From Candidatus Doudnabacteria bacterium (GTDB taxonomy: Bacteria > Patescibacteriota > Doudnabacteria > UBA920): a stretch of 64,000 nucleotides of DNA. A model generated the notes under the pieces. It was not told the origin of the DNA, made no database searches, and was given only the letters and a program-made list of their open reading frames with translations. Below, one piece after another: positions 16,288 to 51,865 of this stretch. The stretch's first letter is position 1. The number at the start of each line of letters is the position of its first letter. The stretch lies in contig CAWINB010000004.1 in NCBI GenBank assembly GCA_963837465.1, positions 330,853-394,852 of the forward strand, read 5' to 3'. Made by a program: the position numbers and the translations under genes.

Positions 16288-17873
<1,586 letters not shown>

Positions 17874-17878
17874 AGGAA

Positions 17879-18137
17879 CTTTTCTTGACTACACTGGTTT
17901 TCGAACTGTGTGTCAAGACATTCTGTTGGTCGTCGTCAATTATTTCGATTTTTGACGCAATCCTTTCTCAATAAGAAACGACGTAAACGTAAGTGGTTTT
18001 GTATAGCGGTAATTCTACCCATATTTAGCAATAAATATGGGCCTGAGCGCCTTTAATGCTCGGGGTCACTATTTAGCCGTTAAAAAACGGAAATTGCAAT
18101 TAAAAAGCCTGACTTCTACTACTGAAGTGAGGCTTTT
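17879..18137 (+). promoter_or_regulatory. conserved left-arm leader of island 1 (attL arm), with covarying hairpins
   Basis: Homologous to 34681-34942 and 47739-47996. Shared blocks are ggtcgtcg, acgtaaac, ggttttgta, ggtaattctacc, tttagcaataaata, tcactatttagccgttaa, gaaattgcaa. A hairpin plus T-run lies just before the int ATG. Confidence 0.6.
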
Positions 18138-19121: not shown

Positions 19122-19365
19122 AAAAATTTATTGAATAAATAGCTCAATTTCGCTATAATTAGAATAATTGAATAGGTGCCTAACCCCATGGCTAAAACTA
19201 TGGGTATGGTAGAAGTAAAGAATCCTCAGCTACGTAAAGACGGTCTCTTAACCGCTCTCGTAGCTGAGGTGCGTGCGAAAGCATGCGGTGGTGTCGAAAG
19301 GCACTGCTGCGGTTGGGAGGCCCTTTTTGTATCCAACCGCAATTTAAAAACCTCAGCTACAACAA

Positions 19366-21255: not shown

Positions 21256-21258
21256 CAT

Positions 21259-24171
21259 ATGCCATCACCAATCAGCATAGGCACAAGGGACATTCCCTTA
21301 AAACTTGCCAAGACAATTAGTGAGAAAGTAAATTTAGCTTGGGACAGTGGAGAGTTTTTAGACAAGACCACGGCCGTTACTCAAGATTTGCTAAAATTTT
21401 GGTTTACCGAACCACACATAGAAAACCGATATATTAATTTTCACTCCGGCCAGCGCCAGGCTATTTTAAACACCATTTATTTGCACGAAATTTTAAGCAC
21501 GAAGTCCGTTAAAGATATTTACGAGAACATAGAATTTGAACTGTTGCCGGAAATAGACATAGCCGAGCTAAAAAAGCCAAAATACGAAATTCCCAAATAC
21601 GCTATTAAGATGGCAACCGGGACGGGCAAAACATGGGTGATGCACGCCTTGTTAATTTGGCAATATCTAAACGCCAAATATGAAGCCCAAAAATCAGGAA
21701 AGTTTTCCAAGAACTTTTTATTAGTCGCCCCCGGCATAATCGTCTACGAACGGCTGCTGGATGCTTATTTGGGTAAGGAAAATGAAAATCGGGAACGCCA
21801 ATTTGAGCAATCTGATTTTTACCAGTTTAAGGATTTGCTCTTGCCTCCGGCCTTTAGGGAAGAATTTTTTGGCTTTATCCAGTCGGCCGTAGCCAAGAAG
21901 CAGGACATCGGCAGCAAGGTGACTGGTGACGGCCTGATCGCCATTGCCAACTGGCATTTATTTATGGGGGAAGAAGAATCGGAAGACAAACCCGTTTCGC
22001 CATTAGACAGTCCACAACAAATCCTCAAAGACATCATGCCAATTCGGCCGGGAGTATCCGGCGGCAATTCTTTGGATGCTTTAGATAGTGCCTATTGGGG
22101 CGGCAAGGAATTGGATTATTTGGCCAATTTGCCGGATTTAGTTTGTATAAATGACGAGGCACACCACATCCACGAAAATAAAACCTACGGGGAAGTCAGC
22201 GAGGTGGAATGGCAAAAGAGCTTGAATAAAATTGCCGCCTCCAAAGGCCATAAATTCATGCAGATAGATTTTAGCGCCACCCCTTACGACGTAACCGGCA
22301 GCGGGCAAAATCGTATCAAGCATTACTTTCCCCACATCATTGTGGATTTTAAGCTAAAGACGGCCATAGACGGCGGCTTTGTAAAGACCATAGCCATAGA
22401 CAAGCGCAAGGAACTTGTGGATTTGCCTTTAGACTTTAAATCGGTACGGGACGAAAACAATACCGCTATTGCGCTCTCGGACGGGCAAAAGCTGATGATC
22501 CGTGCCGGATTAAATCGATTAAAAATTCTTGAAACGGAATTTGTTAAATTCACTAAAGATGCCGATGGGGTTTCCAATAAATATCCCAAAATGTTGATCA
22601 TGTGCGAGGATACTAAAGTTACGCCATTGGTTGAGGCTTTTTTTCTGGACGAAGGCTTAAGCGAGGACGAGGTGCTTCGGGTAGATTCCAATAAAAAAGG
22701 CGAGATACCGGAAACGGAATGGAGAGAACTTAAACAAAAATTATTTAATATTGATAAGCATGATAAGCCTAAAGTTATTATTTCCGTGCTCATGTTGCGT
22801 GAGGGTTTTGACGTAAATAATATCTGCGTTATTGTCCCGTTGCGTTCGTCCGCCGCCCCGATTTTGCTGGAACAGACTATTGGCCGTGGTTTGCGGCTGA
22901 TGTGGCGGGAGCCGGAATATCGTGAAGCCAAAATGGACAATATCCGGCAATTGATAAAAGAAAAACGGGAACCGCAAAACTTGCTGGACTTGCTGTTTAT
23001 TGTTGAGCATCCGGCGTTTTTGCAATTCTATGAGGATTTAGACAAAGAAAGCATCGTAGAAGTTGGTGACATACCAGAGGGAGGGGTGTTGGGGGAAATT
23101 ATTAAGGTTGGCTTAAAACCCGACTGGCAAAAATATGATATGTATTGGCCGATCATCTTGCGTGATGCGGAAGATGAAATGTCCGGCAGCCGTCCGCCGG
23201 TTGAAAAAATGGAAAAATTTACCGTTTATGCGTTGGAAGATTTAAAGAAGTTTTTTCATAAAGGCGGCGAAAAATTCGTGTCCGAGGAGTTAACCGTTAA
23301 AACCCGTTTTGGGGAGTACATGGTAGATGCCAGCCTGTTTACTTCCCAAAGCTATAATGAGTATTTGCAGAAAATAATCCACGCAGTAGTCAATAGGACG
23401 GCGAAGACAAGTGCACGTGGGCATAAAGTTTACCCGACGTTACAAATAAACCAACTGCAATTAGTTGAAGCTTTGGATTTTTATATCCGCAATCTGTTGT
23501 TTGGTAACTCATATGACCCGTTTGTTGATAATAATTGGAAAGTGCTTTTACTGAAGAATGGCGTTGTTACCCAGCATATCGTCAAAGAGGTGGGCAAACT
23601 AATTTTTGAAATGCAGAATAACACTACCACGAGCGAGGCATTGGTAGAAAAGCGCCATTTTGCCGAAGTGGACAGTTTGAGGATGAGGGAAAATTATTCC
23701 TTGCCGATTGTAAAAACTATTTACGAAAGATTGCGCTACCCTTCTAACAAAGGCGGTTTTGAAAAAGACTTTTTAAGCTATGCGGATGGCGACGGGCAGG
23801 TGGAGGCGATAATTAAAATCGAAGAATACCAGCACACCTTTGCCGTTATCAACTATATGCGTTCCGATGGTTTTCTCGCCCAATACCACCCGGACTTTTT
23901 AGTGCAGGCGGTCAATAAAATCTATGTTATTGAAACAAAAGCCGACAAAGACATTGACGATAAAAATGTCCGGCAAAAGCAGCTGGCTACGCTGGATTGG
24001 ATTAAGCGGATCAACGGGTTAAAAACCGAAGACAGATTAAAAAAAGAATGGGAATATGTTTTGCTAGGTCAAAGCAATTTTTACGGTTTAAGCAAAAACG
24101 GGGCTTCCATAACTGAAATTTGCGAATTAGCCAAGGTTAGCGAGGCTGCGGTGACCGGCAGGCTACTTTAG
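21259..24171 (+). CDS. res: Type III restriction enzyme Res subunit (SF2 helicase-nuclease)
   Basis: 970 aa with Walker A ATGTGKT, DEAH-like NDEAHH and helicase motif VI QTIGRGLR. Confidence 0.8.
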   Translation: MPSPISIGTRDIPLKLAKTISEKVNLAWDSGEFLDKTTAVTQDLLKFWFTEPHIENRYINFHSGQRQAILNTIYLHEILSTKSVKDIYENIEFELLPEIDIAELKKPKYEIPKYAIKMATGTGKTWVMHALLIWQYLNAKYEAQKSGKFSKNFLLVAPGIIVYERLLDAYLGKENENRERQFEQSDFYQFKDLLLPPAFREEFFGFIQSAVAKKQDIGSKVTGDGLIAIANWHLFMGEEESEDKPVSPLDSPQQILKDIMPIRPGVSGGNSLDALDSAYWGGKELDYLANLPDLVCINDEAHHIHENKTYGEVSEVEWQKSLNKIAASKGHKFMQIDFSATPYDVTGSGQNRIKHYFPHIIVDFKLKTAIDGGFVKTIAIDKRKELVDLPLDFKSVRDENNTAIALSDGQKLMIRAGLNRLKILETEFVKFTKDADGVSNKYPKMLIMCEDTKVTPLVEAFFLDEGLSEDEVLRVDSNKKGEIPETEWRELKQKLFNIDKHDKPKVIISVLMLREGFDVNNICVIVPLRSSAAPILLEQTIGRGLRLMWREPEYREAKMDNIRQLIKEKREPQNLLDLLFIVEHPAFLQFYEDLDKESIVEVGDIPEGGVLGEIIKVGLKPDWQKYDMYWPIILRDAEDEMSGSRPPVEKMEKFTVYALEDLKKFFHKGGEKFVSEELTVKTRFGEYMVDASLFTSQSYNEYLQKIIHAVVNRTAKTSARGHKVYPTLQINQLQLVEALDFYIRNLLFGNSYDPFVDNNWKVLLLKNGVVTQHIVKEVGKLIFEMQNNTTTSEALVEKRHFAEVDSLRMRENYSLPIVKTIYERLRYPSNKGGFEKDFLSYADGDGQVEAIIKIEEYQHTFAVINYMRSDGFLAQYHPDFLVQAVNKIYVIETKADKDIDDKNVRQKQLATLDWIKRINGLKTEDRLKKEWEYVLLGQSNFYGLSKNGASITEICELAKVSEAAVTGRLL

Positions 24172-24192
24172 CATTATGGATTGTAAAAATTT

Positions 24193-24369
24193 ATGTCACA
24201 TGAAGATTTAGACATTGACGAGTTCAAAAGAATTTTTGGAAAGTATTATGACAAGCCGCTTTCCGACCAAGATGCATATGAAGGCGCTTATGATTTGCTT
24301 AACGCTTTTAAATGGTTAGTAGATCAGGACGAAAGCAACAATCTAAAAATTCAGCCAAAAACTAGATGA
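24193..24369 (+). CDS. small hypothetical protein (58 aa)
   Basis: ORF found by eye, below the track threshold. Its stop overlaps the next start in an ATGA arrangement. Confidence 0.35.
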   Translation: MSHEDLDIDEFKRIFGKYYDKPLSDQDAYEGAYDLLNAFKWLVDQDESNNLKIQPKTR

Positions 24370-24533
24370 TTTCTCAAGAAGCGTTAGAAAAATATAAGGC
24401 TATTTACAAGGAAGAGTATGGTGCGGATATTTCAGACGCAGAAGCCTTGGATTTGGCCGTCAATCTTTTAACAATGATGAACGCAGTATATCGGCCGATA
24501 AAAAAAGAATGGGCTGAAGATGCTGACCTTTGA
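24366..24533 (+). CDS. small hypothetical protein (55 aa), paralog of 24708..24893
   Basis: MISQEALEKYKAIYKEEYGADISDAEALDLAVNLL aligns with MISKEHLEKYKQIYKNRFGKELSNQEALEQATKLL of the ORF 340 nt downstream. Confidence 0.4.
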   Translation: MISQEALEKYKAIYKEEYGADISDAEALDLAVNLLTMMNAVYRPIKKEWAEDADL

Positions 24534-24560
24534 ATTTAACAATCAAATTTAGATAAATTT

Positions 24561-24698
24561 ATGAAGGTATTTATTAGGTTAGTGTTAGGCTTAGTGGCAT
24601 TATTGTTTATAACTTTTATGTCGGCTGCTTTTGGGATAGGCGGGTTTTTGTTCACGCTCGGTTTGTTTGCGGTTATAGTTTATGCTTTTGCTAGGTAG
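24561..24698 (+). CDS. small hydrophobic peptide (45 aa, two TM helices)
   Basis: MKVFIRLVLGLVALLFITFMSAAFGIGGFLFTLGLFAVIVYAFAR. It lies between the two paralogs. Confidence 0.3.
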   Translation: MKVFIRLVLGLVALLFITFMSAAFGIGGFLFTLGLFAVIVYAFAR

Positions 24699-24707
24699 CT
24701 ATTTTTT

Positions 24708-24893
24708 ATGATTTCAAAAGAGCATCTTGAAAAATATAAACAGATTTATAAAAACCGTTTTGGGAAAGAATTATCTAACCAAGAGGCTCTTGAGCAGGCC
24801 ACTAAGTTGCTTAGGTTAATAGAAATTATTTACCATCCCATGACCCAGGAAGAGCTGGATATGGTTAATAGGCGGAGACAGGAATTGGGTTAA
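24708..24893 (+). CDS. small hypothetical protein (61 aa), paralog of 24366..24533
   Basis: See paralog alignment. Confidence 0.4.
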   Translation: MISKEHLEKYKQIYKNRFGKELSNQEALEQATKLLRLIEIIYHPMTQEELDMVNRRRQELG

Positions 24894-24899
24894 AAAGCT

Positions 24900-26114
24900 T
24901 TGACTAAAGTTTGCCATCACAAAGCTTGGAATTTTGCTATAATTAAGAGGCACAAAGCCTCTTTTAATTTAACCCCCTCTATGAACTATATCGAAGATTG
25001 GAAATTATATCTTTGGAAAAAACTGTTGCTGAAATCTGATTATTTCAGCCAGCAAAACCTTAACCTATTTCAGGCTATCCGTAATTTTGTATTTGGCCAG
25101 GACTGGGGCGGAACTGTAGGCAACGATTTGATAGCACAAGCATTAATTGAAATGAGCAATTTTCAGCCGCCCGCTGTTGAGATTACCAACGTTAGGATGT
25201 TAAAAGATTACCGAGATTACCATTACAAGAGATTGTCTGAAGAAGAAGCAAAAAAGGCGCTCGCGGCTGCCACAAGCTCAAGCTATACAAATCCAAATTC
25301 CAAAACCGTCCACGTTGTTTTGCAGCCCAACCACGGATTGCCTAAAGAAGTAGACCAGAAGCTGGAGAAACTTGAGAAGGACAAAAATCTGGCTGACTTA
25401 GATTTGGCGGACTTAAAAACGATGGCCTATAATGCCAAGCTCCCTCAATACTTATGGAATTACGTTAGCTTTGATGCGAAATTCCACAAAGAGCCTTTAG
25501 AAAAAAAGCTAAACGATTACATCGACTCTTTTATCCAAGGGGATTTGGTAGCGCCAAGGGGTTTTAGACTTTACGGCCCAAGACAGCAGATGGAGAGAAT
25601 GTGGCAAACTATACAGGTATTAGCGACTGGTCAGGGCTCGAAAAACCTCAAAGTTACTTTGCGGGACATTGTGCCGCCGGGACGTAGCCCAGTAAATGAG
25701 CATAATCTCTATAAATTTTATGAAATGATACTGGCTTTGGAGCGCAGTGGCGACATCACAGTTACTGATATAGTCGGCTCCGAGGCAGTTATTTCCATAG
25801 CCCCAAGGCATTTAAAAAATCTCGACCCGGACTTAAGGATACCCCCTGCTTTTGCTAAATTTGAAGGCAAGTTTGTCGAACATGAACTTCATTGGTATTG
25901 CCCTATATGCGGCAACAAGATTAAAGTCTTTGAGGACAAAGACACGCTGGCGGAAACCCTTACTATCCGCACCAAACGCTGTAAAAACGGCCACGAAAAC
26001 AAAATAATGATTATCGATGATAAGCTGTATTTGGAAAATACGCCCATTGCCGTTTCAGAAGCAATGGCACACTTTAAGCGCAGGAATAAAGTCCAAAAAC
26101 CAGATGGCGTTTGA
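24900..26114 (+). CDS. hypothetical protein with C-terminal zinc-ribbon (CPICGN...C.NGH)
   Basis: 404 aa with no recognisable catalytic motif. The true start is possibly the Met at about 24981. Confidence 0.4.
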   Translation: MTKVCHHKAWNFAIIKRHKASFNLTPSMNYIEDWKLYLWKKLLLKSDYFSQQNLNLFQAIRNFVFGQDWGGTVGNDLIAQALIEMSNFQPPAVEITNVRMLKDYRDYHYKRLSEEEAKKALAAATSSSYTNPNSKTVHVVLQPNHGLPKEVDQKLEKLEKDKNLADLDLADLKTMAYNAKLPQYLWNYVSFDAKFHKEPLEKKLNDYIDSFIQGDLVAPRGFRLYGPRQQMERMWQTIQVLATGQGSKNLKVTLRDIVPPGRSPVNEHNLYKFYEMILALERSGDITVTDIVGSEAVISIAPRHLKNLDPDLRIPPAFAKFEGKFVEHELHWYCPICGNKIKVFEDKDTLAETLTIRTKRCKNGHENKIMIIDDKLYLENTPIAVSEAMAHFKRRNKVQKPDGV

Positions 26115-26497
26115 CAGTAAGTTATTTTGGGTGTAAAATGTAAGCAGTTAATCTTTTACAATTTAATTGTTTCGCCTTATCGGTCTTGCCAGGCGGCGAG
26201 AGGTAAGGAAGGAATGATTATCCAAAACTTTTTAGACGGTTATACCCAAAGCTATTTGGCTCTGCCAGGAGGCGGAGGAGTAAGCGAGTAAGTATAACGC
26301 CATTAAGCCAAGATAATAGAAAAATCGGACCGTTGATTCGGCCTGGTCTTCTTGTTATTTTGGCTTTTTTCGTTTGACCAGCGCTTTTAACGGCGCTGGT
26401 TTTTGCGTTTTACGCAAGAAAATGGGGCAATTAGGTTGCTGCCTTGGGATCTGGTTTGCTCATAGAGGGGTTATCCTGAAACCGGGCAGCACCCTAA

Positions 26498-27703
26498 TTG
26501 CCTCTAAATAATCAAAATCCCTCTATGATGATTGACAGTATACGTCTAAGAATTTCTATATTTAGTAGCGTGAAAAATAACTTCTTTTTTAGAGAAAAAA
26601 GAGGGAGCCTTGATTATGATAATAGTAATAGACAGAGGGTTAAACAATTTATACGAACCAATTTTAAGTGGAGCGAACAACAACGGTCTCAGGGTAAATA
26701 TATCCCAAAATATTGGACAGAAACCAACAGCTTTGAGGGCGGTAAACAGTATCTTATTTTTGAATTTTCAGTTCCAAAGTTCTTGCAGGGACATAATTTA
26801 GTCGAAATTGCAGAAACCATGCTGCCTGTCTTGGTGGATCGTCTCGAGGACTTCTGTAAAATAATTCAACTATCAGTTGCGGAGGTAGATATTTTGGGTG
26901 CGCAAGTCACGATGGTCGCATATTGTCATAATGTTCCGATAGCCCATCTGGCTCCTTCGCAAGAAGTTATGAAATTGTTATCTGGATATACCTATCGTTT
27001 TCGTTCTAAATTTCGGCCCGAGCAAAATGAATTGGGACAGATTACTCATTTACAACTCGGTAATAATACTTCCCATGTTACTGCTTATGATAAGTTGCCG
27101 GAGATTATAGTGCATGCCCGAACTACTGAGGAATTGGAAATTGCCAAAATAATTAAAAATAAACAGTTGCCAAATCCTTACGGAAAAATTATTCAAGACA
27201 CCATTAGGTTTGAGCTCACTTTACATAATACTGTGTCGGTAAGGCAAGCAATGAAAAAATTTTATGGTGACAAGCCTTTTTACACACTCAAGGATGTGTT
27301 CAAAGCCGATATTGCGGCGGCATTATTAAAGTTGGAAATGGAGGAAATTTATAATCACCCCCTTAAAAATATAGCTGCAAATTCTAATTATGACTTCCGA
27401 AAACTAAATGATGAGGTCGGTAAATTTATTCGAGACCGCCATCAGGACGGCAAACTGATTGGCTTGCTGGAACAGGCCACCCTTGTTCTACACGCCGGGG
27501 GCTGGGCGGCGGTCAGAACTTATTTAGCGAAAGGTTGTTGCCGCCGGACTTTGCAATACCGGATAGCTGAACTACGCGAAATAGAAAAAATTGGAATTAA
27601 TTTGGGAACGCCAAATGAAAAAATTATGGAATATATTTTAAACCAATTTGGCATTGGAAAAACTAATTTACTTCCTAAAGGCCAACAATTATTGTTTAGC
27701 TAA
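26498..27703 (+). CDS. hypothetical protein, possible replication-initiation protein of the element
   Basis: 401 aa. Preceded by imperfect direct repeats (tgccaggcggcgagaggtaagg at 26184 and tgccaggaggcggaggagtaagcg at 26262). The functional call is weak. Confidence 0.3.
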   Translation: MPLNNQNPSMMIDSIRLRISIFSSVKNNFFFREKRGSLDYDNSNRQRVKQFIRTNFKWSEQQRSQGKYIPKYWTETNSFEGGKQYLIFEFSVPKFLQGHNLVEIAETMLPVLVDRLEDFCKIIQLSVAEVDILGAQVTMVAYCHNVPIAHLAPSQEVMKLLSGYTYRFRSKFRPEQNELGQITHLQLGNNTSHVTAYDKLPEIIVHARTTEELEIAKIIKNKQLPNPYGKIIQDTIRFELTLHNTVSVRQAMKKFYGDKPFYTLKDVFKADIAAALLKLEMEEIYNHPLKNIAANSNYDFRKLNDEVGKFIRDRHQDGKLIGLLEQATLVLHAGGWAAVRTYLAKGCCRRTLQYRIAELREIEKIGINLGTPNEKIMEYILNQFGIGKTNLLPKGQQLLFS

Positions 27704-27916
27704 TTTATATGCAACTGCCATGTTTATCTATAGCCAACAAAAACCATACAGTCTATGCGTCTTTTGTCTCCCTAAGTATTACGTCAATACACGTGCAATC
27801 TTTTGCACATTTTCACAGAGAATAATTGTGCAAGTTATAAAGCGCAGCTTAGGCAATATATGTGCAATCGCAAAAAGCCAAAATGTTACAAATCAATGAC
27901 TGAATAAAGTTGTCTC

Positions 27917-28885
27917 ATGAGCCAGTTTAACCAAAACCCAGATCCTAATTTTATACAGCAGCCATCTGCTCCGGTTTTAGGTTTGCCGGTCGTAAATACC
28001 CCACAGCTTTTGACCTTTGAACAGTTGATCCCGTTGTTTGGCGATTACGTCACTTACGATTTGAATCATAGTCCTAAGACATCCAAAAAGTATGTCGAGG
28101 GGTTAAGGCATATTTTGAAAGACCTACCCTTTATAGTTTACCCCCAAGACTTAACGTTGCCGCATATTACGGAACTGAAGAAAAAAGTGCAGTTGCGTGG
28201 CGCAAAAGAGTCCCGAGTTAATAGTCTACTATTCTCATTGCGAAAATTTTTAACCTATTGTAACGAAGTCTATAAACTGGTTACAATAAATCCAAAGGAA
28301 ATTAAAGTTATGCGATTACCAAAAAGGGAAGTGGTGTTTTTGGCTCCTGCCGAAATTGAGCAATTTTTAAGCGCAATGGATACAACAACTTTGCCGGGAT
28401 TACGAATACGGACGCTTGTAGAGGTGCTACTTTCCACTGCTATGCGAATTTCCGAAGCCCTGTCGGTCAGCCGTGGGGACATTGACTGGGAGGGCAAGGA
28501 AATTGTCATTATAGGGAAAGGCAATAAGCAGCGGACGGTATTTTTAAGCGATAGGGCAATCGGTTGGCTTCAAACCTATTTACTCCGGCGTAAGGATAAT
28601 GACCCTGCTTTGTTCGTAACCTTTGGCGAACCCAAACGCTTGTCGCCTTATGACTTGTCTAAGCAGTTTAAGCACTATGCTGAAAAAGCAGGATTAAAGA
28701 AAAAAGTAACACCCCATATTTTACGCCATACGGCCGCGACAACCATGTCCCATAACGGCGCGGACATTCGTAACATTCAGCTAATTTTAGGCCATAGCGA
28801 CATTAAAACAACCGCCAAATATTACTTAGGCGTGGACAAAGAGGCTTTAAAGGAAGCCCATAAAAAGTTTCTAAAATACGATTAG
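27917..28885 (+). CDS. tyrosine recombinase/integrase (class B)
   Basis: 322 aa with LLSTAMRISEAL...IIGKGNKQRTVFL...HILRHTAATTM...GHSDIKTTAKYY. A distinct clade from the 18138 integrase. Confidence 0.85.
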   Translation: MSQFNQNPDPNFIQQPSAPVLGLPVVNTPQLLTFEQLIPLFGDYVTYDLNHSPKTSKKYVEGLRHILKDLPFIVYPQDLTLPHITELKKKVQLRGAKESRVNSLLFSLRKFLTYCNEVYKLVTINPKEIKVMRLPKREVVFLAPAEIEQFLSAMDTTTLPGLRIRTLVEVLLSTAMRISEALSVSRGDIDWEGKEIVIIGKGNKQRTVFLSDRAIGWLQTYLLRRKDNDPALFVTFGEPKRLSPYDLSKQFKHYAEKAGLKKKVTPHILRHTAATTMSHNGADIRNIQLILGHSDIKTTAKYYLGVDKEALKEAHKKFLKYD

Positions 28886-28962
28886 GCAGGCAAACTACCT
28901 ATGGATTGAGTGGTTTCTAAGATAGTTTACCCCTTATTTTATAGGGTTTTTATGATTTTGGC

Positions 28963-28991
28963 TTGACAGAAGCCATAAAATCAGGTATAAT
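28963..28991 (+). promoter_or_regulatory. consensus sigma70 promoter (TTGACA-17-TATAAT) upstream of DGR target gene
   Basis: Perfect hexamers with a 17-nt spacer. An SD (aaggaggg) lies at about 29112. Confidence 0.55.
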
Positions 28992-29128
28992 TAAAAGTTA
29001 ATTTTGAGACTGGAAATTGAGCTATCAAAGTTTATTTAATGGCTGAATTGCCTGTCCCAACTGTTGGGATTTGGTGTGCCGTGGCTTTCACGGATGCAGT
29101 TAATGTTCCTATAAATCAATAAGGAGGG

Positions 29129-29806
29129 ATGACGCCAATGGAAACCCCGTTGACCGTATCCACTAACAATCCCCGAGAAGGCAAACAGGGCCGGAAGTTG
29201 TATTACCGGCTCAAAACCTCAATTAAGAAATCCGGATTATTAATTGTAGCGCTTCAACCCGCGCTTGAGTTCCCCGGCACAGCGATGGAAGACGACATCG
29301 CGGCTATCTTGGTAAAGTATTCCAAGATGGCTCGTGGCATCGTTACTCCCGTCCGCGCCGAGGACACCGGCCTCATGCCCCAGGGCTATTCGGTATACCT
29401 CACGCCGCAGGGCGTTCGCAAGGATCGTCTGGAAGGCGACGTCGAGCTGGCTAATGTCGACTACATCTGCCCGTTGCGGGATGATGATGGCGACTATATC
29501 GGCGGCGAGGTAATGCTCCAGCGGTCGGTCGAACTCAAGGCCATCGGTAGCCTCGGCTACGCTTTCGCGCTTCTCAAGGCGCAGGAGCAAGGGAAGGAAA
29601 TCTTTCCTGTCGAGTCGCGCGGCAAGCATTATTTCATTATGCCGCTCACCGAGCTGCTCGGTGACGACCGTGGCCGCCGCGTGGCTTGCTTCGGCTGGCA
29701 CGGCAAGTCGCTGCGTTGGGTGCTCTTCTTCCGTTGGGTCGGCGGCGTCTTCGCTCGCCGCGGTCGGTTTGTTGTTCCCCGCGAGAAGAAGCCCTCGGTC
29801 GCTTAG
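29129..29806 (+). CDS. DGR variable (target) protein, VR at C-terminus
   Basis: 225 aa. GC content is much higher than the surroundings. The C-terminal region ...ACFGWHGKSLRWVLFFRWVGGVFARRGRFVVPR is encoded by the VR. Confidence 0.75.
   Translation: MTPMETPLTVSTNNPREGKQGRKLYYRLKTSIKKSGLLIVALQPALEFPGTAMEDDIAAILVKYSKMARGIVTPVRAEDTGLMPQGYSVYLTPQGVRKDRLEGDVELANVDYICPLRDDDGDYIGGEVMLQRSVELKAIGSLGYAFALLKAQEQGKEIFPVESRGKHYFIMPLTELLGDDRGRRVACFGWHGKSLRWVLFFRWVGGVFARRGRFVVPREKKPSVA
29654..29782 (+). repeat. DGR variable repeat (VR)
   Basis: 129 nt aligned to the TR at 30148-30276. About 25 mismatches, every one at a position where the TR has adenine. A GC-rich IMH-like sequence and the hairpin ccccgcat...atgcgggg follow at 29783-29890. 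Confidence 0.85.
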
Positions 29807-30147
29807 TCCCTCGGCTCTGCCGCTGGGTTCTGGACTCTTGGCGCTTCGCATTGCCCCGCATTTTGACTTCGGTCAGGATGCGGGGTGTTTTTTTGTCCAA
29901 AATTTTGAAAGTTTGGTATAATTTAAGTAGATGGGATTTATGCCTGCGGTTAAGGCTTCAGGTGACCACATCTCGCATTGTTAAAAAACCAGAGTATCGG
30001 CGGCTACGGTTTCCGGTAGAGTGTTTTTTAACAAATCTTAAAAAGAAGATACTCGGTGCAAAGTATTGGCGGGCTTTAAGGCCCCAAATAAAATACAACC
30101 CCAAGAGTATTCAAGGGGTGGTGGCTTGGAATATACTTTGCATAATC

Positions 30148-30276
30148 CTGCTCGATGACAACCGTAACCGCAACGTGGCTTACTTCAACTGGAACGACAA
30201 GTCGCAGCGTTGGGTGCTCAACTTCAATTGGGTCGACAACAACTTCAATCGCAACGATCGGTTTGTTGTTCCCCGC
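30148..30276 (+). repeat. DGR template repeat (TR)
   Basis: Adenine-rich (AAC codons: AYFNWNDKSQRWVLNFNWVDNNFNRNDRFVVPR). Lies between the target gene and avd/RT. Confidence 0.85.
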
Positions 30277-30644
30277 TATTGTCTTCTTACTCCTCCCACA
30301 ACGGGAGGAGTTTCTTTTAATAACTGCCGCTGCCAGCCGCCAAACATTTTACCCGCGTCAACCAGAGGTGTTGAAATATCACTAAATTGTTTATTGTCTA
30401 AGGCTTTTAACTCCCAAGCCAATTGTAGGAAGTATTTAAGGGTATCAAGTTTAATGCTTGCCTTTTGAATTAAGATTGACTTGCTATCCCTTGAGGTAAA
30501 GCCCGCTGTCAGCGTTAGTTCAATAACATCGGTGAACAGGACATTGATTTTTTCAGCCAAGGAGTATTTTACCAGCTTGGGCAGGTGTGGCAGGTAGTTG
30601 TGCCAGAGTTTGTAAGCATCGGTAATTTTTTGTAATACCGGCAA
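30276..30644 (-). CDS. avd: DGR accessory variability determinant (Avd)-like four-helix-bundle protein
   Basis: 122 aa, helical, 23S-rRNA-IVS-protein-like sequence (LAEKINVLFTDVIELTLTAGF...LKYFLQLAWEL). Located between TR and RT as in canonical DGRs. Confidence 0.6.
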   Translation of the reverse strand: MPVLQKITDAYKLWHNYLPHLPKLVKYSLAEKINVLFTDVIELTLTAGFTSRDSKSILIQKASIKLDTLKYFLQLAWELKALDNKQFSDISTPLVDAGKMFGGWQRQLLKETPPVVGGVRRQ

Positions 30645-30673
30645 GTTGATAAAATTTCCGTTGGGGGGGGGGG

Positions 30674-31717
30674 TTGTTAAAAGTCATTTTTATAAGTTTA
30701 ATTATGAAAACGCAATTAAAAATAAGTTACGAGGAAATCATTTCACTCGAAAATTTGTTTGCCGCCTGGCAGGAGTTTTTGCCGGGCAAGAGAAAAAAGA
30801 AAGACGTGCAGGAATTTGGCCTTAGGCTTGCTGATAACATTTTACAGCTTCAGGAGGAACTTGCCAATTTTAGCTATATCCACGGCCCATACAAGGCCTT
30901 TAACATTTCTGACCCCAAGCCGAGGAATATCCATAAGGCAAGCGTTCGGGACAGAGTTTTACATCACGCCATTTACCGCAAACTATATCCGTTTTTCGAC
31001 AAAACTTTTATCGGCAGTTCGTATTCCTGCCGTTTGGACAAAGGAGTTCACAAGGCTTTGAATAAGTTTAGGGCATTGGCGTTTAAAGCAAGTAAAAATC
31101 ATACGCAAACAGCTTGGGTGCTCAAGTGTGATATTAAAAAGTTTTTCGCCAGCATTGACCATGCAAAACTGCTGAAAATTTTATCAGCTTACGTTCCCGA
31201 TAAAAATATTCTTTGGGTTTTAGAGCGAATTATTTATAGCTTTGATTATAAGGTAGCAGGCCGCGGCCTCCCGCTTGGCAACCTGACCTCCCAATTATTT
31301 TGCAACGTATATATGAACGAATTTGACCAATTCATAAAACACAAACTCAAGGCCAAATATTATATCCGTTATGCTGATGATTTTGTTTTTTTATCGGGTA
31401 GCAAGGACGAGCTAATATCCTTAGTTCCTAAAGTAGCCGAGTTTTTAGGAGAGGACTTAAAACTGTCTTTGCATCCGGATAAAGTTTTTATAAAGACCTT
31501 GGCCTCGGGCGTGGACTTCCTGGGCTGGGTGCATTTCCCTCATTACCGGGTTCTAAGAAAAAATACCGGCAGAAGAATGTTCAAACGAATTTACGGCCAT
31601 CCAACAAATGAAACATTCCAGTCATATTTAGGGTTAATGAGCCACGGAAATACTTACGGGCTTAAACAAAAATTGTTGAATTGGTATGGGTTACTTAAAA
31701 CAGCACAGCAGGAATAG
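30674..31717 (+). CDS. DGR reverse transcriptase
   Basis: RT motifs include YIRYADDFVFL (YADD). Motif 4 is LGNLTSQLFCNVYMN, the IGxxxSQ-like feature characteristic of DGR RTs. Also SDPKPRNIHKASVRDRVLHHA. The probable start is the Met at 30704. Confidence 0.85.
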   Translation: MLKVIFISLIMKTQLKISYEEIISLENLFAAWQEFLPGKRKKKDVQEFGLRLADNILQLQEELANFSYIHGPYKAFNISDPKPRNIHKASVRDRVLHHAIYRKLYPFFDKTFIGSSYSCRLDKGVHKALNKFRALAFKASKNHTQTAWVLKCDIKKFFASIDHAKLLKILSAYVPDKNILWVLERIIYSFDYKVAGRGLPLGNLTSQLFCNVYMNEFDQFIKHKLKAKYYIRYADDFVFLSGSKDELISLVPKVAEFLGEDLKLSLHPDKVFIKTLASGVDFLGWVHFPHYRVLRKNTGRRMFKRIYGHPTNETFQSYLGLMSHGNTYGLKQKLLNWYGLLKTAQQE

Positions 31718-31786
31718 AAAAGGCCACGTTGCTGGAACGTGGCCCCCGTCTTAATGTGACGACGGATTGAGTGGCTGCTTGCGGGA

Positions 31787-32353
31787 TTACCGACTGACGT
31801 AGGCGAACTGGCCTTCCTGCACCGGCTTGCGTTCGGTAGCGCCGACCAGCGAAGCGACAGTCATGCGCATACCCACCGGCAGATTTTGGAGGAGTGTGGC
31901 ATGGCCGCCTTTGAAGCGGATTGCATCGCGGTAGTTGTTGACCCGCTCGCTGAGCTGATCGAACGTCGCTTCCTGCGGTTTTCCATTGCCTTTGTTGAGA
32001 TTCAACTTGGCTCCGGGTGGAACGCAGATGGCGCAGACAACGGGCGGGTTATTGCTGGTGACAGCTTGTTTGATTTTAGCCACCACACCCGTTTCATTAC
32101 GAACCGACTGCCACGCCTGAAAGGCGTTTAAGTCAGCTACGGAGGCCAGACCGATTGTGCCTGTGCCGAAGCGGTGAGTAACGAGTTCCTCACCCTCTTG
32201 AGCCAGACGGTTATTGACTCCCATCAAGGAGTAGTCGCACATAGGGTTAAACCCTCTTTCCAATTGGATTTTCAAGGTCATGACAGCACCATGAATTATC
32301 CAAATCATAAACGAACAGAGAGAGAGAGAGTCAATAGAGGATTTTTTATGCAA
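31787..32353 (-). CDS. hypothetical protein, high-GC (foreign composition)
   Basis: 188-aa ORF. The probable start is the internal Met at about 32283. No recognisable motif. Confidence 0.3.
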   Translation of the reverse strand: MHKKSSIDSLSLCSFMIWIIHGAVMTLKIQLERGFNPMCDYSLMGVNNRLAQEGEELVTHRFGTGTIGLASVADLNAFQAWQSVRNETGVVAKIKQAVTSNNPPVVCAICVPPGAKLNLNKGNGKPQEATFDQLSERVNNYRDAIRFKGGHATLLQNLPVGMRMTVASLVGATERKPVQEGQFAYVSR

Positions 32354-32549
32354 GGTCGCTAAAAAAATTGATTTTTGCTAAAATATAGTAAACACTACGG
32401 GTCGATTTATAAAAAATTTATGCCGGACTATAATCACCTGCTTGTAACAACCCAAGCTAAAAGCAAAAGGCCAAAATGGTGGTGGATAGTAATTGTTATT
32501 TTTGCAGTTTTGATAGTAATTGTGCTATTAAAAAAATAATTTTATAACT

Positions 32550-33200
32550 ATGGAAACTGAAACCCGTTCTACCCCCCCCCATACCTCTTCCGAGAACCCA
32601 GACACTTGGGTCAAAGACACCACCCAAGCTATGAGGAAGCCTGGCGGCAGGGACTTGGCCGACTACAAGGAATTTTTAGGATTTACCGAAAATGAGCTTG
32701 CAGGCAAGACAATTTTAGATTTGGGTTCGGGTTCAAAAGAAAAATTATCACGCCAGCTAAAGGAAGCCGGCGTTGTTGCTAATGTAGTTAGTCTGAACCC
32801 GGATTATACCATTCCTAAGTATAGGCGCATTATAAACAACGAGGAAGACTGGCAGAAAAAATCCGTAGCCGCCTTAGCCCAAAGCCTGCCTTTTAAGGAT
32901 GGCAGCTTTGACAGTGTTTTATCTTTGGAAGCCATAACGATGTATGAGGATGCTTTTGAAAAACCGGACAGTGCCAAAAAATGGGCGGCAGAAATAGCAA
33001 GGGTCTTAAAACCCGGCGGCGAAGCAAGGCTGGGAGAAATTTTGGGTTTCAAAGGTGAACTAAAGCAACAGGCTTGGCAGGAGCTGGTTAGGCTTTTTGC
33101 GGATTTAGGCGTAGAGGCAAGAATTGAGCAATTTAAAATCAGGGAAACAAACCCGATGCCGAGATTTAGGTTGGTTCTGAAAAAATCTTTAATCCAATAA
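32550..33200 (+). CDS. class I SAM-dependent methyltransferase with C9 homopolymer tract near 5' end
   Basis: ILDLGSGSKEK motif I and LKPGGEARL. A C9 run at 32572-32580 lies within the N-terminal extension. Confidence 0.6.
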   Translation: METETRSTPPHTSSENPDTWVKDTTQAMRKPGGRDLADYKEFLGFTENELAGKTILDLGSGSKEKLSRQLKEAGVVANVVSLNPDYTIPKYRRIINNEEDWQKKSVAALAQSLPFKDGSFDSVLSLEAITMYEDAFEKPDSAKKWAAEIARVLKPGGEARLGEILGFKGELKQQAWQELVRLFADLGVEARIEQFKIRETNPMPRFRLVLKKSLIQ

Positions 33201-33222
33201 TTAACCATTAACCTTTTTATTT

Positions 33223-33657
33223 ATGACAGAAATCAAAAGAAATTTTGAGGATGAACCCACTCGCCAAGAGCGTGATCCTCAACATTTAGAAGTAAAGCGT
33301 TTGTTTGAATCCTTAGCAGCCCAACACGGCACTGGGATTATGCTTAAGTATATTGAAAGTGTTACCGATGTTGCTCCCAAAGTGGCGTCCGAATGGTTTG
33401 AAGGTCATCGTCATCCCAGCTCAGGTATTCGCAAGGCTATCCTTAACTGCTTGCGGAATTTTAAGCATGAAGATTTACCCAAGCAACCGGAACATATAAA
33501 AGCTCCGCTGGCTACCAGTCAGCCAAAAGAAAATAAACAAATTCCAACAAGACAGCCAAGGCCGCAGGAGCAGAAAAAACAGGAAACCATTGCAAAAAAT
33601 GAAGCTGAGCTTAAAGCCATAATGGATAGGGCAAGGGAAAAGGGGCAAATAACTTAG
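33223..33657 (+). CDS. hypothetical protein
   Basis: 144 aa, charged and helical. Confidence 0.3.
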   Translation: MTEIKRNFEDEPTRQERDPQHLEVKRLFESLAAQHGTGIMLKYIESVTDVAPKVASEWFEGHRHPSSGIRKAILNCLRNFKHEDLPKQPEHIKAPLATSQPKENKQIPTRQPRPQEQKKQETIAKNEAELKAIMDRAREKGQIT

Positions 33658-33690
33658 TTTTTTATAGATTTATTGGTCTTTATATAGGAC

Positions 33691-33719
33691 TTGACAATGT
33701 GGTGTTTACCATATACAAT
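33691..33719 (+). promoter_or_regulatory. sigma70-type promoter (TTGACA-17-TACAAT) for brnTA
   Basis: Consensus -35, a 17-nt spacer and a near-consensus -10, located 7 nt upstream of the brnT start. Confidence 0.5.
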
Positions 33720-33725
33720 TGAAGT

Positions 33726-34040
33726 ATGGATTTCATATTAAACAATTTTGAGGGTTTTGAGTGGGATGAGGGGAACGAACAAAAGAGCTTTTTGAAACAT
33801 GGCATTACGCCATTGGAAGCGGAAGAAGCATTTTTTAACCCCAATTTTATATCAGCTGATCCTGTCCATAGCCAGAGCGAAAAGCGTTACCGCTTATTGG
33901 GCAGAACTAACAGTAGTAAAGTTTTAATAATAGCTTTTACAATAAGAAGTAACAAAGCGAGAGTTATCTCTTCGCGATTAGCCAATAAAAAAGAAAGGAC
34001 ATTATATGACCAAGCAGTTAAAGCCAATTCCCAAATTTAA
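33726..34040 (+). CDS. brnT: BrnT-family (DUF497) toxin
   Basis: FEWDEGNEQKSFLKHGITPLEAEEAFFNP matches the BrnT signature. It overlaps the downstream antitoxin gene. Confidence 0.7.
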   Translation: MDFILNNFEGFEWDEGNEQKSFLKHGITPLEAEEAFFNPNFISADPVHSQSEKRYRLLGRTNSSKVLIIAFTIRSNKARVISSRLANKKERTLYDQAVKANSQI

Positions 34041-34272
34041 GACTGAAGCCGAAGAAGCCAAGTTTTGGAATAGCCACGACTCTACCCAGTATATTGACTG
34101 GTTAAAAGCCCCGCGTGGCGTTTTTCCTAACCTAAAACCATCTTCTCAATCTGTTTCACTTCGCATTCCAGCCAACATATTAGCTCGCATTAAAGTGCAA
34201 GCCAATCAGTTAGACGTGCCTTATCAATCTTTGATGAAGCAGTATATTGCTAACGGTGTAATGAAGAATTAA
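34006..34272 (+). CDS. brnA: BrnA-family antitoxin
   Basis: FWNSHDSTQYIDW...SLRIPANILARIK, with an RHH-like C-terminus typical of BrnA. Confidence 0.65.
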   Translation: MTKQLKPIPKFKTEAEEAKFWNSHDSTQYIDWLKAPRGVFPNLKPSSQSVSLRIPANILARIKVQANQLDVPYQSLMKQYIANGVMKN

Positions 34273-34584
34273 ATGCAATGGGCAGTATAAGACATATTGA
34301 CGCAGGTCATCCGGATGAGTGGTATAAGGACAGGTTTATGGTCACATTTACCGAGGAAGGTATAATGGATCTGAGGTACCAAGATTGGGTTGGCGGCAGG
34401 ATGGAAGTGTATGTTGTGGGAGAGCAGTATGCAATAGATGAAATTCGGTTTTTTTACCCCAAACACATTAGAATGGATAAACTTTAGGGAGCAATATGAT
34501 GGCAAGTGGTTAGATAAAACTGCATTTGAAGACGTAGTGGAAACGGTAAAGAAAAGGTTTTACACCAAACCAGAAAGCAGAATT

Positions 34585-34680
34585 TAACAATTAAATTGAT
34601 CTTTTAAATTTTTAATACAGTAGTAGTTTGTCAGGCAATTTCCGTTTACAACGGCTCAGAAACACCTCCTTTCTAAGGAA
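34585..34680 (+). repeat. right arm type 1 plus att core copy 2 (RA at 34585-34662, core at 34663-34680)
   Basis: About 78 bp (aattgatcttttaaatttttaatacagtagtagtttgtcaggcaatttccgtttacaacggctcagaaa) identical to 51783-51858, followed by cacctcctttctaaggaa. Confidence 0.75.
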
Positions 34681-34942
34681 TAAATATGCAGCCTTAAACT
34701 TTTCGAAGTTTATGTTGTTGCACATTCCAGTGGTCGTCATCTTCTATTTCGATAGAAGGTGCACATACTCTAACGATTGAACGTAAACGAACGGTTTTGT
34801 AAAAGGTAATTCTACCCTTATTTTCGCAAGATTATAAGGAGTCTCAACGCCTTAAATGTTGGGAGTCACTATTTAGCCGTTAAGGGAACTTAACGAAATT
34901 GCAAATAAAAGCCTCGTCATCAGCAATGATAACGAGGTTTTT

Positions 34943-35929
34943 ATGTATGAGGTTAATTCGGTAGAAAGAGTCGCAAAAGGTGGAATTGCGGCGACAGTCA
35001 GCCCCGCCGCTCCTATCGGCACAAAGATTAGCACTTTGGTGCCGCAATTCTTGGCTTATGGCCAGTATGACCTGTCCTTTGCCGCAGGCACCATAGAGAA
35101 ATACCGCGATAGCCTAAACGTCTTTATGCGGGACGTTGGGGATTTGCCCGTAGAGGAATTAAACTTTGGGCATTTTACTTTGCTGAAACAAAAAATTATG
35201 GAAAGGGGGTCGGGGGTCTCACGCATAGCGGGCGTGGTCTTTGCGATGAAAAGTATGTTAAAGTTTGCTACCGACGTATTGGAGATGCAGATTTTGGATT
35301 ATAAGAAAATCAGAGCGCCGAAGCGGCGCAGGCGGGACGTAGTTTATTTAACCAATGCCGAAATCCAGCAGTTCGTTGACAGCATAAAGTTTGAAAAATG
35401 CTGGACGGGCAATACCCGTAAAAAGGGCATCAGCGTCCACCGCCTGAGGTTTCGGACTTTGGTTGAAGTCTTGCTTGGCACGGGGATGCGTATAAGCGAA
35501 GCATTGTCGCTTACAAGGGATGTTATAAACTTTGAAAAAGGCGAGGCTAAGATAATCGGCAAAGGAAGCAAGGAGCGCACAGTGTTTTTTAACGAACGGG
35601 CTTTGTATTGGATTAAGTTTTATTTGGAACAGAGAAACGACGACAATCCCGTTATATTTTTAAACCGAAAAGGCAAGCCGCTGGACAGGGGCGATGCCGA
35701 TACTTTGTTTAAGCGTTACGCAGAAAGGTCAGGTATAACTAAAAAATTAACGCCGCACATTTTGCGGCACACGATGGCGACGAATCTGCTTTTTAACGGA
35801 TGCCCGATTGGCCATATTAAGGAAATCCTCGGACACGACCGATTAGAGACAACTTGTCGTTATTATTTGGGCTTAGACAAAGATAAAGCTAAAGAAGCCC
35901 ACGGCCAATTTTTAAATTACGAACAATAA
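34943..35929 (+). CDS. tyrosine recombinase/integrase (class A)
   Basis: 328 aa. The C-terminal catalytic half is near-identical in pattern to the 18138 and 47997 integrases. Confidence 0.85.
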   Translation: MYEVNSVERVAKGGIAATVSPAAPIGTKISTLVPQFLAYGQYDLSFAAGTIEKYRDSLNVFMRDVGDLPVEELNFGHFTLLKQKIMERGSGVSRIAGVVFAMKSMLKFATDVLEMQILDYKKIRAPKRRRRDVVYLTNAEIQQFVDSIKFEKCWTGNTRKKGISVHRLRFRTLVEVLLGTGMRISEALSLTRDVINFEKGEAKIIGKGSKERTVFFNERALYWIKFYLEQRNDDNPVIFLNRKGKPLDRGDADTLFKRYAERSGITKKLTPHILRHTMATNLLFNGCPIGHIKEILGHDRLETTCRYYLGLDKDKAKEAHGQFLNYEQ

Positions 35930-38582: not shown

Positions 38583-39614
38583 ATGCAAAATACAGCAGTA
38601 GCAACTATGAACCCGCCTATGCTGGCGGTTGCAGAAGACTTGTCGCCGATAGAAATTGTCTATTTGGCCACAAGCGAGATTCGGCCTGATAAAAATCAGC
38701 CCCGTAAATCTCTAGACAGTAAGAAAATTAAGGAAATGGCGGAAAGCATTAAGGCCGTTCGGGGGATTATAAATCCCATCGAAGTCGACCAAGACTATAT
38801 TATTGTTACGGGACAGCTCCGCTGGGAAGCCGCTAAGGTGGCGGGGTTAGAAAAAGTGCCGTGCAAAATAATAGAAATCAGCGATGAGGAGCGCTTCCGC
38901 AGGCAAGTAGTGGAAAACTTGCACCACAACGTGATGAGCGATATGGATATTGCTAAAGCATTTGCTAAGATGCTTAACATTCTACCTGGTAGCAGGTTGC
39001 AGGGAAAAGACGCTGGCCTTAGCCGCTTGGCTGAAGATATTGGTAAAAGCGTGGACTACATCAGCCAGCATTTAGACCGATTGGAAGACTCTGGGCGCAT
39101 TCAGGAAGCTTTGAGTTCGGGAAAAATTTCTTTTACCCACGCAAGAGAGACAAAGAAAGTTCCCGCTGGCTTCAGGGAAGCCGTAGAGAAAAAAATGCTG
39201 GCGGGCGAGTTTCCCCATAGCGGTTCCATAGCGGAATTGGCTAAAGGCTTAAAGAGGAATCCAGATAAAGCCGACCAAATTTTGGCATTTAATTTTACGG
39301 AGTTAAAGTCGCCTGAGGAAGTTAAACAGGCAGTATCCAAAATTGCATCTCCTGCGGCGGATGCTTCGGGGGCAGTAGAGGAATTCAATAGAATTATAAA
39401 TGGGCTTATGCACTGGCTTGAAAACACCCCGTCGTCCTATGCCGCTGAACACCCCGAATTGAAAATCAACCAAACGCTAACCAAGCTCGGCAAGGAGATT
39501 AAGAAATGGCTGAAAAATCTGAAAGAATTTCAGGCTCGAGCGGAAGTTAAGGGGCAGACGATGTTGGATATGGATATCCCCGAAATAACAGTAGATGATA
39601 TCCCCGAATTCTAA
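38583..39614 (+). CDS. ParB/Srx-like N-terminal-domain protein (ParB-like nuclease/partition protein)
   Basis: KNQPRKSLDSKKIKEMAESIKAVRGIINPIEVD...VTGQLRWEAAKVAGLEKVPCKII, the ParB N-terminal domain motifs. Confidence 0.7.
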   Translation: MQNTAVATMNPPMLAVAEDLSPIEIVYLATSEIRPDKNQPRKSLDSKKIKEMAESIKAVRGIINPIEVDQDYIIVTGQLRWEAAKVAGLEKVPCKIIEISDEERFRRQVVENLHHNVMSDMDIAKAFAKMLNILPGSRLQGKDAGLSRLAEDIGKSVDYISQHLDRLEDSGRIQEALSSGKISFTHARETKKVPAGFREAVEKKMLAGEFPHSGSIAELAKGLKRNPDKADQILAFNFTELKSPEEVKQAVSKIASPAADASGAVEEFNRIINGLMHWLENTPSSYAAEHPELKINQTLTKLGKEIKKWLKNLKEFQARAEVKGQTMLDMDIPEITVDDIPEF

Positions 39615-39632
39615 AATTAAAGACATAACCAT

Positions 39633-51782: not shown

Positions 51783-51865
51783 AGCAATTAATTGATCTTT
51801 TAAATTTTTAATACAGTAGTAGTTTGTCAGGCAATTTCCGTTTACAACGGCTCAGAAACACCTCC
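51783..51865 (+). repeat. right arm type 1 (second copy) plus partial core cacctcc (51859-51865)
   Basis: Identical over about 78 bp to 34585-34662. After cacctcc the sequence diverges (ctccggctacag). Confidence 0.75.

Follow-up and report, generated by a model that had tools for sequence, protein, structure and literature searches.

The window analysed here, a stretch of 64,000 nucleotides (nt) from contig CAWINB010000004.1 of a Candidatus Doudnabacteria bacterium, harbors a compact diversity-generating retroelement (DGR) at positions 29129-31717. A target gene that ends in a variable repeat (VR) is followed by the matching template repeat (TR), by a gene for the accessory variability determinant (avd) on the opposite strand and by a reverse transcriptase (RT) gene. 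The initial annotation had described this set as a complete DGR, and all components were indeed found intact. With high confidence, the locus can be regarded as a DGR of the type common in the Candidate Phyla Radiation (CPR), carried as cargo of an integrative island and presumably operating by the mechanism outlined below. Its principal components are:

29129-29806, plus strand: target gene, 225 amino acids (aa), of an unannotated family, with predicted N-terminal helices and a C-terminal alpha/beta domain of about 140 aa resembling a C-type lectin (CLec)
29654-29782, plus strand: VR, defined by repeat alignment and mismatch tally
30148-30276, plus strand: TR with 31 adenines and 11 AAC codons, defined in the same way
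30276-30644, minus strand: avd, 122 aa, Pfam bAvd; the stop codon overlaps the last TR base
30704-31717, plus strand: DGR RT, 337 aa, with KPR, LGNLTSQ and YADD motifs, assigned by an RVT_1 match and alignment to the Bordetella RT (bRT)

Pairwise alignment of VR and TR yields a direct repeat of 129 nt without gaps and with 80% identity, at exactly the coordinates originally proposed. Base by base, 26 mismatches were counted (about 25 had been estimated), each located at a TR adenine. Differences at other template bases, which the initial annotation had named as evidence against its reading, amount to zero in 129 nt. The changes comprise 17 A>G, 5 A>C and 4 A>T and affect 26 of the 31 TR adenines, a confinement with a hypergeometric P of 1.4e-22. 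VR corresponds to residues 176-218 of the target and thus forms the 3' part of an intact open reading frame (ORF), in which all 26 changes fall on codon position 1 or 2 of frame 29129-29806 and are non-synonymous; the third codon positions of TR are devoid of adenine. Among the 19 variable codons of TR, 11 are AAC, in agreement with its description as AAC-rich; about 10^18 protein variants are possible. Only one TR codon (AAG) could mutate to a stop, and this codon is unaltered in VR. Further VR-like copies of TR were not found on either strand of the whole window.

DGRs are typically marked by an initiation of mutagenic homing (IMH) sequence in VR that differs from its IMH* counterpart in TR, and by a GC-rich inverted repeat just downstream of VR. 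Here the identity of the two repeats extends through ...GTTCCCCGC, beyond which VR and TR are unrelated, and no IMH/IMH* difference between the two repeats is visible, in which the locus departs from the DGR of Bordetella phage BPP-1. The VR end had been called IMH-like and linked to a hairpin, ccccgcat...atgcgggg. This hairpin does exist at 29852-29887; however, it lies 73 nt past the end of the VR/TR homology and is terminator-like. A BPP-1-like cruciform abutting the IMH is therefore not supported.

The predicted opposite-strand Avd matches Pfam PF22296 (bAvd) with 44.8 bits, above the curated cut-off of 40 (E 1.9e-11, profile positions 4-106 of 107). For the RT, the annotated YADD and LGNLTSQ motifs are both present, and the arginine of the KPR motif corresponds to R74 of bRT. 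The start codon indicated by the alignment is ATG 30704 rather than TTG 30674, since the former aligns with the bRT N-terminus. Close to this start, within the 5' end of the RT gene, lies a further promoter-like site:

30839-30867, minus strand: promoter-like site directed at avd (consensus match only)

Source annotations name the RTs of related loci 'retron-type' or 'group II intron', and RTs of both kinds appear lower in the list of PDB matches. This might point to a retron, group II intron or defence RT that merely adjoins a repeat created by chance or duplication. However, the top PDB match (8ub7, E 4e-43, residues 10-327) comes from the bRT-Avd-RNA particle and represents the DGR RT of a Bordetella phage, whereas retron and group II intron RTs reach E 1e-19 or worse and thus fall more than 20 orders of magnitude below. 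In addition, the [I/V/L]GxxxSQ signature of DGR RTs takes the place of the QGxxxSP found in other RTs (PMC7826257), a bAvd gene is present, and the adenine-only mismatches (P ~1e-22) have their equivalent in every relative. An RT of non-DGR origin is therefore hardly conceivable at this locus.

The order of TR (30148-30276, plus strand), avd (30276-30644, minus strand) and RT (30704-31717, plus strand) fits Architecture B3, in which a TR-(avd)-RT core carries avd on the reverse strand and which accounts for 90% of CPR DGRs (Wu et al. 2018, PMC5758913). The locus is therefore confirmed as a genuine and intact DGR of standard CPR layout, with nothing new in kind. Accordingly, the opposite orientation of avd, originally taken for a peculiarity, belongs to the standard layout and recurs in relatives. 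Such related cassettes (L001-L035) were gathered from genomes and metagenomes by way of the target family and by way of the RT. The order target (plus), TR (plus), avd (minus), RT (plus) is common to L001, L003, L005, L007, L010, L013, L017, L024, L030 and L032-L035, each with an adenine-biased VR/TR pair; in L014, L029 and L031 the RT is inverted and located on the other side. All matches in named genomes belong to Patescibacteria (Doudnabacteria, Parcubacteria, Saccharibacteria), in keeping with the annotated presence of DGRs in CPR lineages.

A DGR clade restricted to CPR has been described, in whose targets neither transmembrane nor conserved domains can typically be recognised (Roux et al. 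2021, PMC8144416). The CPR B3 DGRs (PMC5758913; clade 2 of PMC8144416) share gene order, strands and host group with the present locus, and the CPR targets of both surveys resemble the target studied here in having no recognisable domain or membrane segment. The difference is one of setting, not of kind, as the present copy resides on an integrative island and not in a housekeeping context. One Saccharibacteria contig (L012) contains a second, unrelated VR/TR pair (11812-11937 / 12236-12361; 18 of 20 mismatches at A) at a distance of 5 kb from a target homolog that stands there as an orphan; the model of the RNA leader described below gives no match there.

The DGR RNA and associated cis elements

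The TR is embedded in an RNA-coding unit, shown to consist of a promoter-like site of its own, a leader of about 220 nt, the 129-nt TR, a 9-nt trailer and a stem-loop with a U-run. Its promoter-like site directly follows the terminator hairpin of the target gene. The individual elements, all on the plus strand, are:

29893-29922: promoter-like site of the DGR RNA, TTGTCC-18-TATAAT with extended -10 TG (consensus match; -10 box kept in the cassette alignment)
29925-30147: structured leader, about 220 nt (covariation, nhmmer, RNAalifold)
29929-35/29966-73, 29941-51/29954-64, 29984-89/30023-28 and 29995-30004/30009-18: leader helices, first part
30056-68/30131-43, 30071-74/30081-84 and 30094-106/30111-23: leader helices, second part
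30044-30051: 5' strand of the clamp helix, AGAAGAUA, closely followed by the invariant ACUYGG (covariation, cognate pairing)
30280-30287: 3' strand of the clamp helix, UGUCUUCU, 3 nt after TR (covariation, cognate pairing)
30289-30319: terminator-like stem-loop of nine pairs (30289-30311) plus UUUCUUUU, directly 3' of TR and clamp, inside the 3' end of antisense avd

Conservation of the leader across the cassettes exceeds that of the proteins. With nhmmer, a single leader match is obtained per cassette, also where the target belongs to a different family (E 1e-25 to 1e-75). RNAalifold predicts 88 pairs from 11 sequences, 29 of them with compensatory changes, compared to 8.4 +/- 2.1 in shuffled alignments (0/500 reach the observed number) and 3-8 in slid controls. 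An alignment of 17 sequences gives the same leader fold with 38 compensatory pairs out of 59. Helices that RNAalifold placed inside TR were discarded for lack of covariation support.

Pairing of AGAAGAUA with UGUCUUCU generates a long-range helix, by which the 9-nt trailer is connected to a site about 100 nt upstream of TR and the TR is enclosed in a loop. In distant cassettes the two strands differ in sequence yet stay complementary (GUUUCCAACG / CGUUGGAGAU in L034, GUUUUCAAC / GUUGAAAAC in L032, AAUGAACG / CGUUCAUU in L030, CAGAAGA / UCUUCUG in L033). The mean duplex energy is -10.8 kcal/mol for cognate and -4.4 kcal/mol for non-cognate strands, and the cognate assignment is the best of 5040 permutations. 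The stem-loop behind the clamp is found in every cassette and lies antisense to the last avd codons; accordingly, the C-terminal Avd tail KETPPxxGGVRR falls beyond the bAvd domain.

In the Bordetella DGR RNA, a stem-loop right after TR binds Avd, and a duplex of TR-upstream and TR-downstream sequences, termed cPRT Stop, is needed for cis-primed reverse transcription (cPRT) and terminates it (Handa et al. 2024, bioRxiv 10.1101/2023.10.23.563531). For 278 Avd-type DGRs, CPR members among them, the 40 nt before and the 100 nt after each TR were inspected, and both elements were predicted in 207 (10.1101/2023.10.23.563531). Elements of the Bordetella type are present here as the stem-loop 30289-30311 and the duplex of 30044-30051 with 30280-30287, both supported by covariation. 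Because position and logic match, the stem-loop may represent the Avd-binding element and the clamp helix the cPRT-Stop duplex. By analogy to the Bordetella RT-Avd-RNA particle, Avd and RT would bind the leader-TR-trailer RNA, with the stem-loop as grip for Avd. RT would then copy TR into cDNA, placing random nucleotides opposite the 31 adenines, and homology-dependent retrohoming would substitute this cDNA for the VR at the target 3' end. The 19 variable codons, 11 of which are AAC, would thereby be recoded within the space of about 10^18 proteins.

Comparison with the BPP-1 cassette (mtd-avd-TR-brt) reveals common features as well as a distinct arrangement. The RTs are homologous over their full length (E 4e-43), including R74, the I181 equivalent (L) and the catalytic YADD, and both systems possess bAvd, adenine-specific transfer from TR to VR, a stem-loop directly 3' of TR and a TR-flanking duplex. 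In contrast to BPP-1, avd is antisense and overlaps the RNA trailer. Moreover, the large structured RNA domain is situated 5' of TR, whereas in Bordetella it occupies a 140-nt spacer 3' of TR; primer strand, thumb ring and RT-binding stem-loop are likewise found on the 3' side of TR there. The upstream clamp strand is positioned about 100 nt before TR, compared to about 10 nt in Bordetella.

Rfam holds no family for the leader, and a permissive scan gave sub-threshold matches only. The full RT-16 model (RF03019) aligns to 30016-30150, stopping where TR begins, with a score of 31.5 bits (gathering threshold 50); RT-7 (RF03028) reaches 24.9 bits at helix 29988-30038 (threshold 116.8), with relatives at 28 bits or less, and RT-11 (RF03106) 19.4 bits (threshold 143.5). 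With every score below its gathering threshold, the leader falls outside these families in their curated form. Like the leader, however, all three are structured RNAs beside RT genes, for which a role in DGRs was speculated by the authors (Weinberg et al. 2017, PMC5737381).

Three small elements, again on the plus strand, complete the non-coding part of the cassette:

29783-29851: conserved post-VR segment with YT(C/T/G)GG motifs at 29794, 29810, 29823 and 29837 (motif counts in cassettes)
29852-29894: probable terminator hairpin of the target gene, 16 pairs with UUCG loop, followed by T7 (scores as intrinsic terminator)
30662-30672: G11 homopolymer between the avd and RT starts (tract recurrence in relatives)

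Covarying stems occupy the position of the terminator hairpin at related loci. In the 75 nt after VR, 60 YT(C/T/G)GG motifs were observed in 15 cassettes, compared to 13.6 expected; a control segment contained 6. Conservation of the array includes cassettes whose ORF stops before it and targets of unrelated families, and it may constitute a cis element for retrohoming, a candidate for the role of the BPP-1 IMH in target recognition. A guide-like mimicry of the leader clamp strand by the post-VR sequence was also considered and rejected, since the resemblance does not covary in distant cassettes.

Of 15 cassettes, 12 carry a tract of G9-G12 where the starts of avd and RT diverge (9/9 complete close-family and 3/6 distant), namely those of the window and of L001, L003, L005, L007, L010, L013, L017, L024, L030, L032 and L033, and the tract varies in length by locus. 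Read on the avd strand, it encodes in-frame prolines upstream of the aligned Avd N-terminus. An upstream in-frame start that would place the C-tract inside avd was not found, as nearby ATGs are off-frame by +1 or +2, inconsistently. The tract may act as a slippage switch; however, no consistent reading-frame logic emerged in the cassettes examined. A literature search for a link between DGRs and homopolymer tracts returned nothing.

CPR bacteria are the richest reservoir of DGRs, with targets that are functionally blank. To our knowledge, DGRs represent the only natural system for targeted protein hypermutation in prokaryotes, and we know of no CPR DGR that has been studied mechanistically. 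The present cassette offers a clean, complete and compact (2.8 kb) example, with relatives that allow the non-coding machinery to be mapped. Newly mapped are the covariation-supported leader-TR-trailer RNA, the TR-enclosing clamp, the recurrent homopolymer tract and the post-VR motif array. These elements provide concrete mutable targets for reconstitution and a basis for an RNA family model, and could be used to test whether the Bordetella priming mechanism extends to the B3 layout dominant in CPR DGRs.

The target protein family

The target gene is preceded by a perfect match to the sigma-70-like consensus:

28963-28991, plus strand: promoter-like site of the target gene, TTGACA-17-TATAAT (12/12)

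Close homologs of 200-225 aa number about 60, and none of them has a Pfam domain or an informative name. An exhaustive profile search extended the family to 455 cluster representatives, nearly all of 100-270 aa, with a common C-terminal domain of about 140 aa; ten longer members of this superfamily likewise contain no Pfam domain. A length of 225 aa, initially judged unusually short, is therefore ordinary for the family.

In the family alignment a conserved body precedes the last 45 residues, where an invariant scaffold (VAxFxW...WxLxFxW...F...RFV) is interleaved with hypervariable positions. This motif is presumably unlike the CLec1-3 logos. The AlphaFold2 model calculated from the family alignment is confident (pLDDT 90, pTM 0.80) and displays three N-terminal helices followed by a beta/alpha-alpha/beta-sheet domain, whose last five strands hold VR. 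The VR-bearing domain of the model looks like a minimal C-type-lectin fold with the variable residues on the C-terminal beta-strands. It fits, but does not prove, the prediction that uncharacterised VR domains of CPR are new CLec variants (Roux et al. 2021, PMC8144416). Compared to DGR variable proteins of C-type-lectin fold (TvpA 2y3c, Mtd, FGE-type), the domain is much smaller and shows no match in sequence, profile or Foldseek comparison. Sequence and profile searches of Pfam and PDB with the target gave zero similarity, and Foldseek with the model found nothing significant in PDB and BFVD.

Since no hydrophobic segment is compatible with a signal peptide or membrane helix (maximal Kyte-Doolittle mean over 19 residues 1.13), the target is probably cytoplasmic and can be envisaged as a cytoplasmic binding protein. 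RTs with 65-76% identity to the present RT serve targets of similar size but unrelated sequence. Remote homology of the target family to the targets of the RTs in L030, L033 and L034 was rejected at an hhalign probability of about 1%. One 'engine' therefore appears combined with several small target families.

The GC content of the target had been noted as far above that of the host, and at 58.6% it clearly exceeds the 43.2% of the window. Throughout its length, the gene is rich in GC and poor in A at third codon positions (GC3 0.69 and A3 0.13 outside VR), whereas avd and RT of the same cassette have a GC3 of 0.44-0.46, a contrast seen in nearly all relatives. Recent import from a GC-rich donor was rejected; as avd and RT of this cassette are AT-rich and family members in many genomes share the bias, the GC excess is a maintained property of the family. 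Target homologs in L001-L029 have a GC3 of 0.57-0.79 and are A3-poor outside VR, in host genomes of 38-50% GC; ordinary GC3 is found in the three most divergent orphan homologs (L022, L026, L027).

Activity and decay of the cassette

Zero non-adenine differences between VR and TR, intact genes and intact regulatory signals argue for a functional and recently active element. It is nevertheless to be considered whether the cassette is a fossil, which once diversified its target and retains only the traces of past events in the VR/TR pattern. Decayed relatives are common. The RT is truncated in L006, L015 and L021, and targets stand as orphans in L002, L004, L009, L011, L019, L020, L022, L023 and L026-L028; in L002 the target was kept where L033 and L035 retain avd and RT. 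Moreover, VR is identical in three assemblies of one relative (L008, L017, L018), so no turnover is seen there. In the window, however, every component is intact, with catalytic and fidelity motifs preserved, and promoter-like sites and covarying RNA are retained. The 129 nt of the repeat contain 0 non-adenine mismatches, compared to 1-3 in L005, L008, L010 and L012. An inactive remnant is therefore considered unlikely, and a complete, probably functional DGR remains the preferred interpretation.

The orphan target homolog of L002 (991-1662) is located in a PGM / tRNA-synthetase / RNase J neighbourhood that accommodates complete cassettes in L033 and L035, which indicates that TR, avd and RT were lost in place. 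Its target motifs are degenerating, with RRSLHNINMPLTELL in place of RGKHYFIMPLTELL.

Tandem islands at the 3' end of the 16S gene

An intact 16S rRNA gene, covering the complete bacterial model, is located at 16287-17870; a 23S gene was not found in the 46 kb downstream. The 3'-terminal 18-mer of the 16S gene, CACCTCCTTTCTAAGGAA, occurs in three exact copies (17861-17878, 34663-34680 and 47721-47738; 0.1 expected by chance); behind each copy lies a conserved non-coding stretch of about 250 nt and, next, a gene for a tyrosine integrase (flanks 17780-18140, 34582-34945 and 47640-48005). Judged by these repeats, three tandem integrative islands are lined up at the 3' end of the gene. The initial annotation had placed the DGR on an element integrating into the 16S gene. 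Its position in an island at this gene is correct; however, the islands abut the 3' end and leave the gene intact.

The first island (about 17879-34662) houses the DGR along with a type III restriction-modification (R-M) system, a Phage_CRI-like replication protein, a second integrase, an S-adenosylmethionine (SAM) methyltransferase and a BrnT/BrnA toxin-antitoxin pair. ParB, another integrase, a type II R-M pair, a HopA1-like protein and a Mutator transposase are found in islands 2 and 3. Homology to related cassettes spans only from about 28911-28945 (5' limit seen against L001, L002 and L013) to about 31693, and in L001, L033 and L035 the same cassette lies among housekeeping genes. From these bounds and settings, the 2.8-kb DGR can be regarded as a self-contained module that is island cargo here.

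The Phage_CRI-like replication protein (26498-27703) and the second integrase, of tyrosine type (27917-28885), are encoded next to the cassette. This brings to mind a phage-borne DGR that, like the one of BPP-1, would diversify the receptor-binding (tail) protein of some prophage or inovirus-like element. However, the island is without virion structural genes, which makes a tail-fibre role unlikely, and carries R-M, methyltransferase and toxin-antitoxin genes instead. Unlike the trimeric tail-fibre protein Mtd, the 225-aa target has no phage context, and its model finds no match among viral structures. Neither the replication protein nor the integrase was found beside any related cassette, and the cassettes between housekeeping genes in L001, L033 and L035 also speak against a phage function, which is accordingly judged very improbable.

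A more far-reaching reading of the CPR-type DGR is put forward only tentatively and is rather doubtful as a whole. The DGR RNA of CPR B3 systems would be rearranged (permuted), such that the priming and RT-binding functions of the Bordetella 3' region reside in the 220-nt 5' leader and are brought to the 3' end of TR by the clamp; the G9-G12 tract would serve as a slippage-prone on/off switch of the mutator; and the target, small, GC3-rich and cytoplasmic, would serve inside the cell as a diversified binder, possibly a sensor of invaders given the R-M/toxin-antitoxin context of the island, and not a surface adhesin.

Several minor features concern the islands. Pairs of a replication or partition gene and a tyrosine integrase gene are found inside island 1 (Phage_CRI-like Rep and Int, 26498-28885) and island 2 (ParB and Int, 38583-40682), and at the DNA level the two integrase genes share 71% identity at their 3' ends (28773-28881 and 40480-40588). 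This suggests that both islands could be nested or composite elements carrying cargo, the DGR in one and the type II R-M pair in the other. An exact direct repeat of 76 nt connects 34594-34669, which ends in the second att-like core, with 51790-51865, where only the CACCTCC part of the core is present and the right end of the third island may be marked. An ORF of 188 aa just downstream of the RT (31787-32353, minus strand; GC 52.6%, GC3 0.61) has no Pfam match and is absent beside the related cassettes examined. LOOT RNA (RF03000) scores above the gathering threshold at 689-802 and at 19177-19305, the latter immediately 3' of the island-1 integrase gene (18138-19121).

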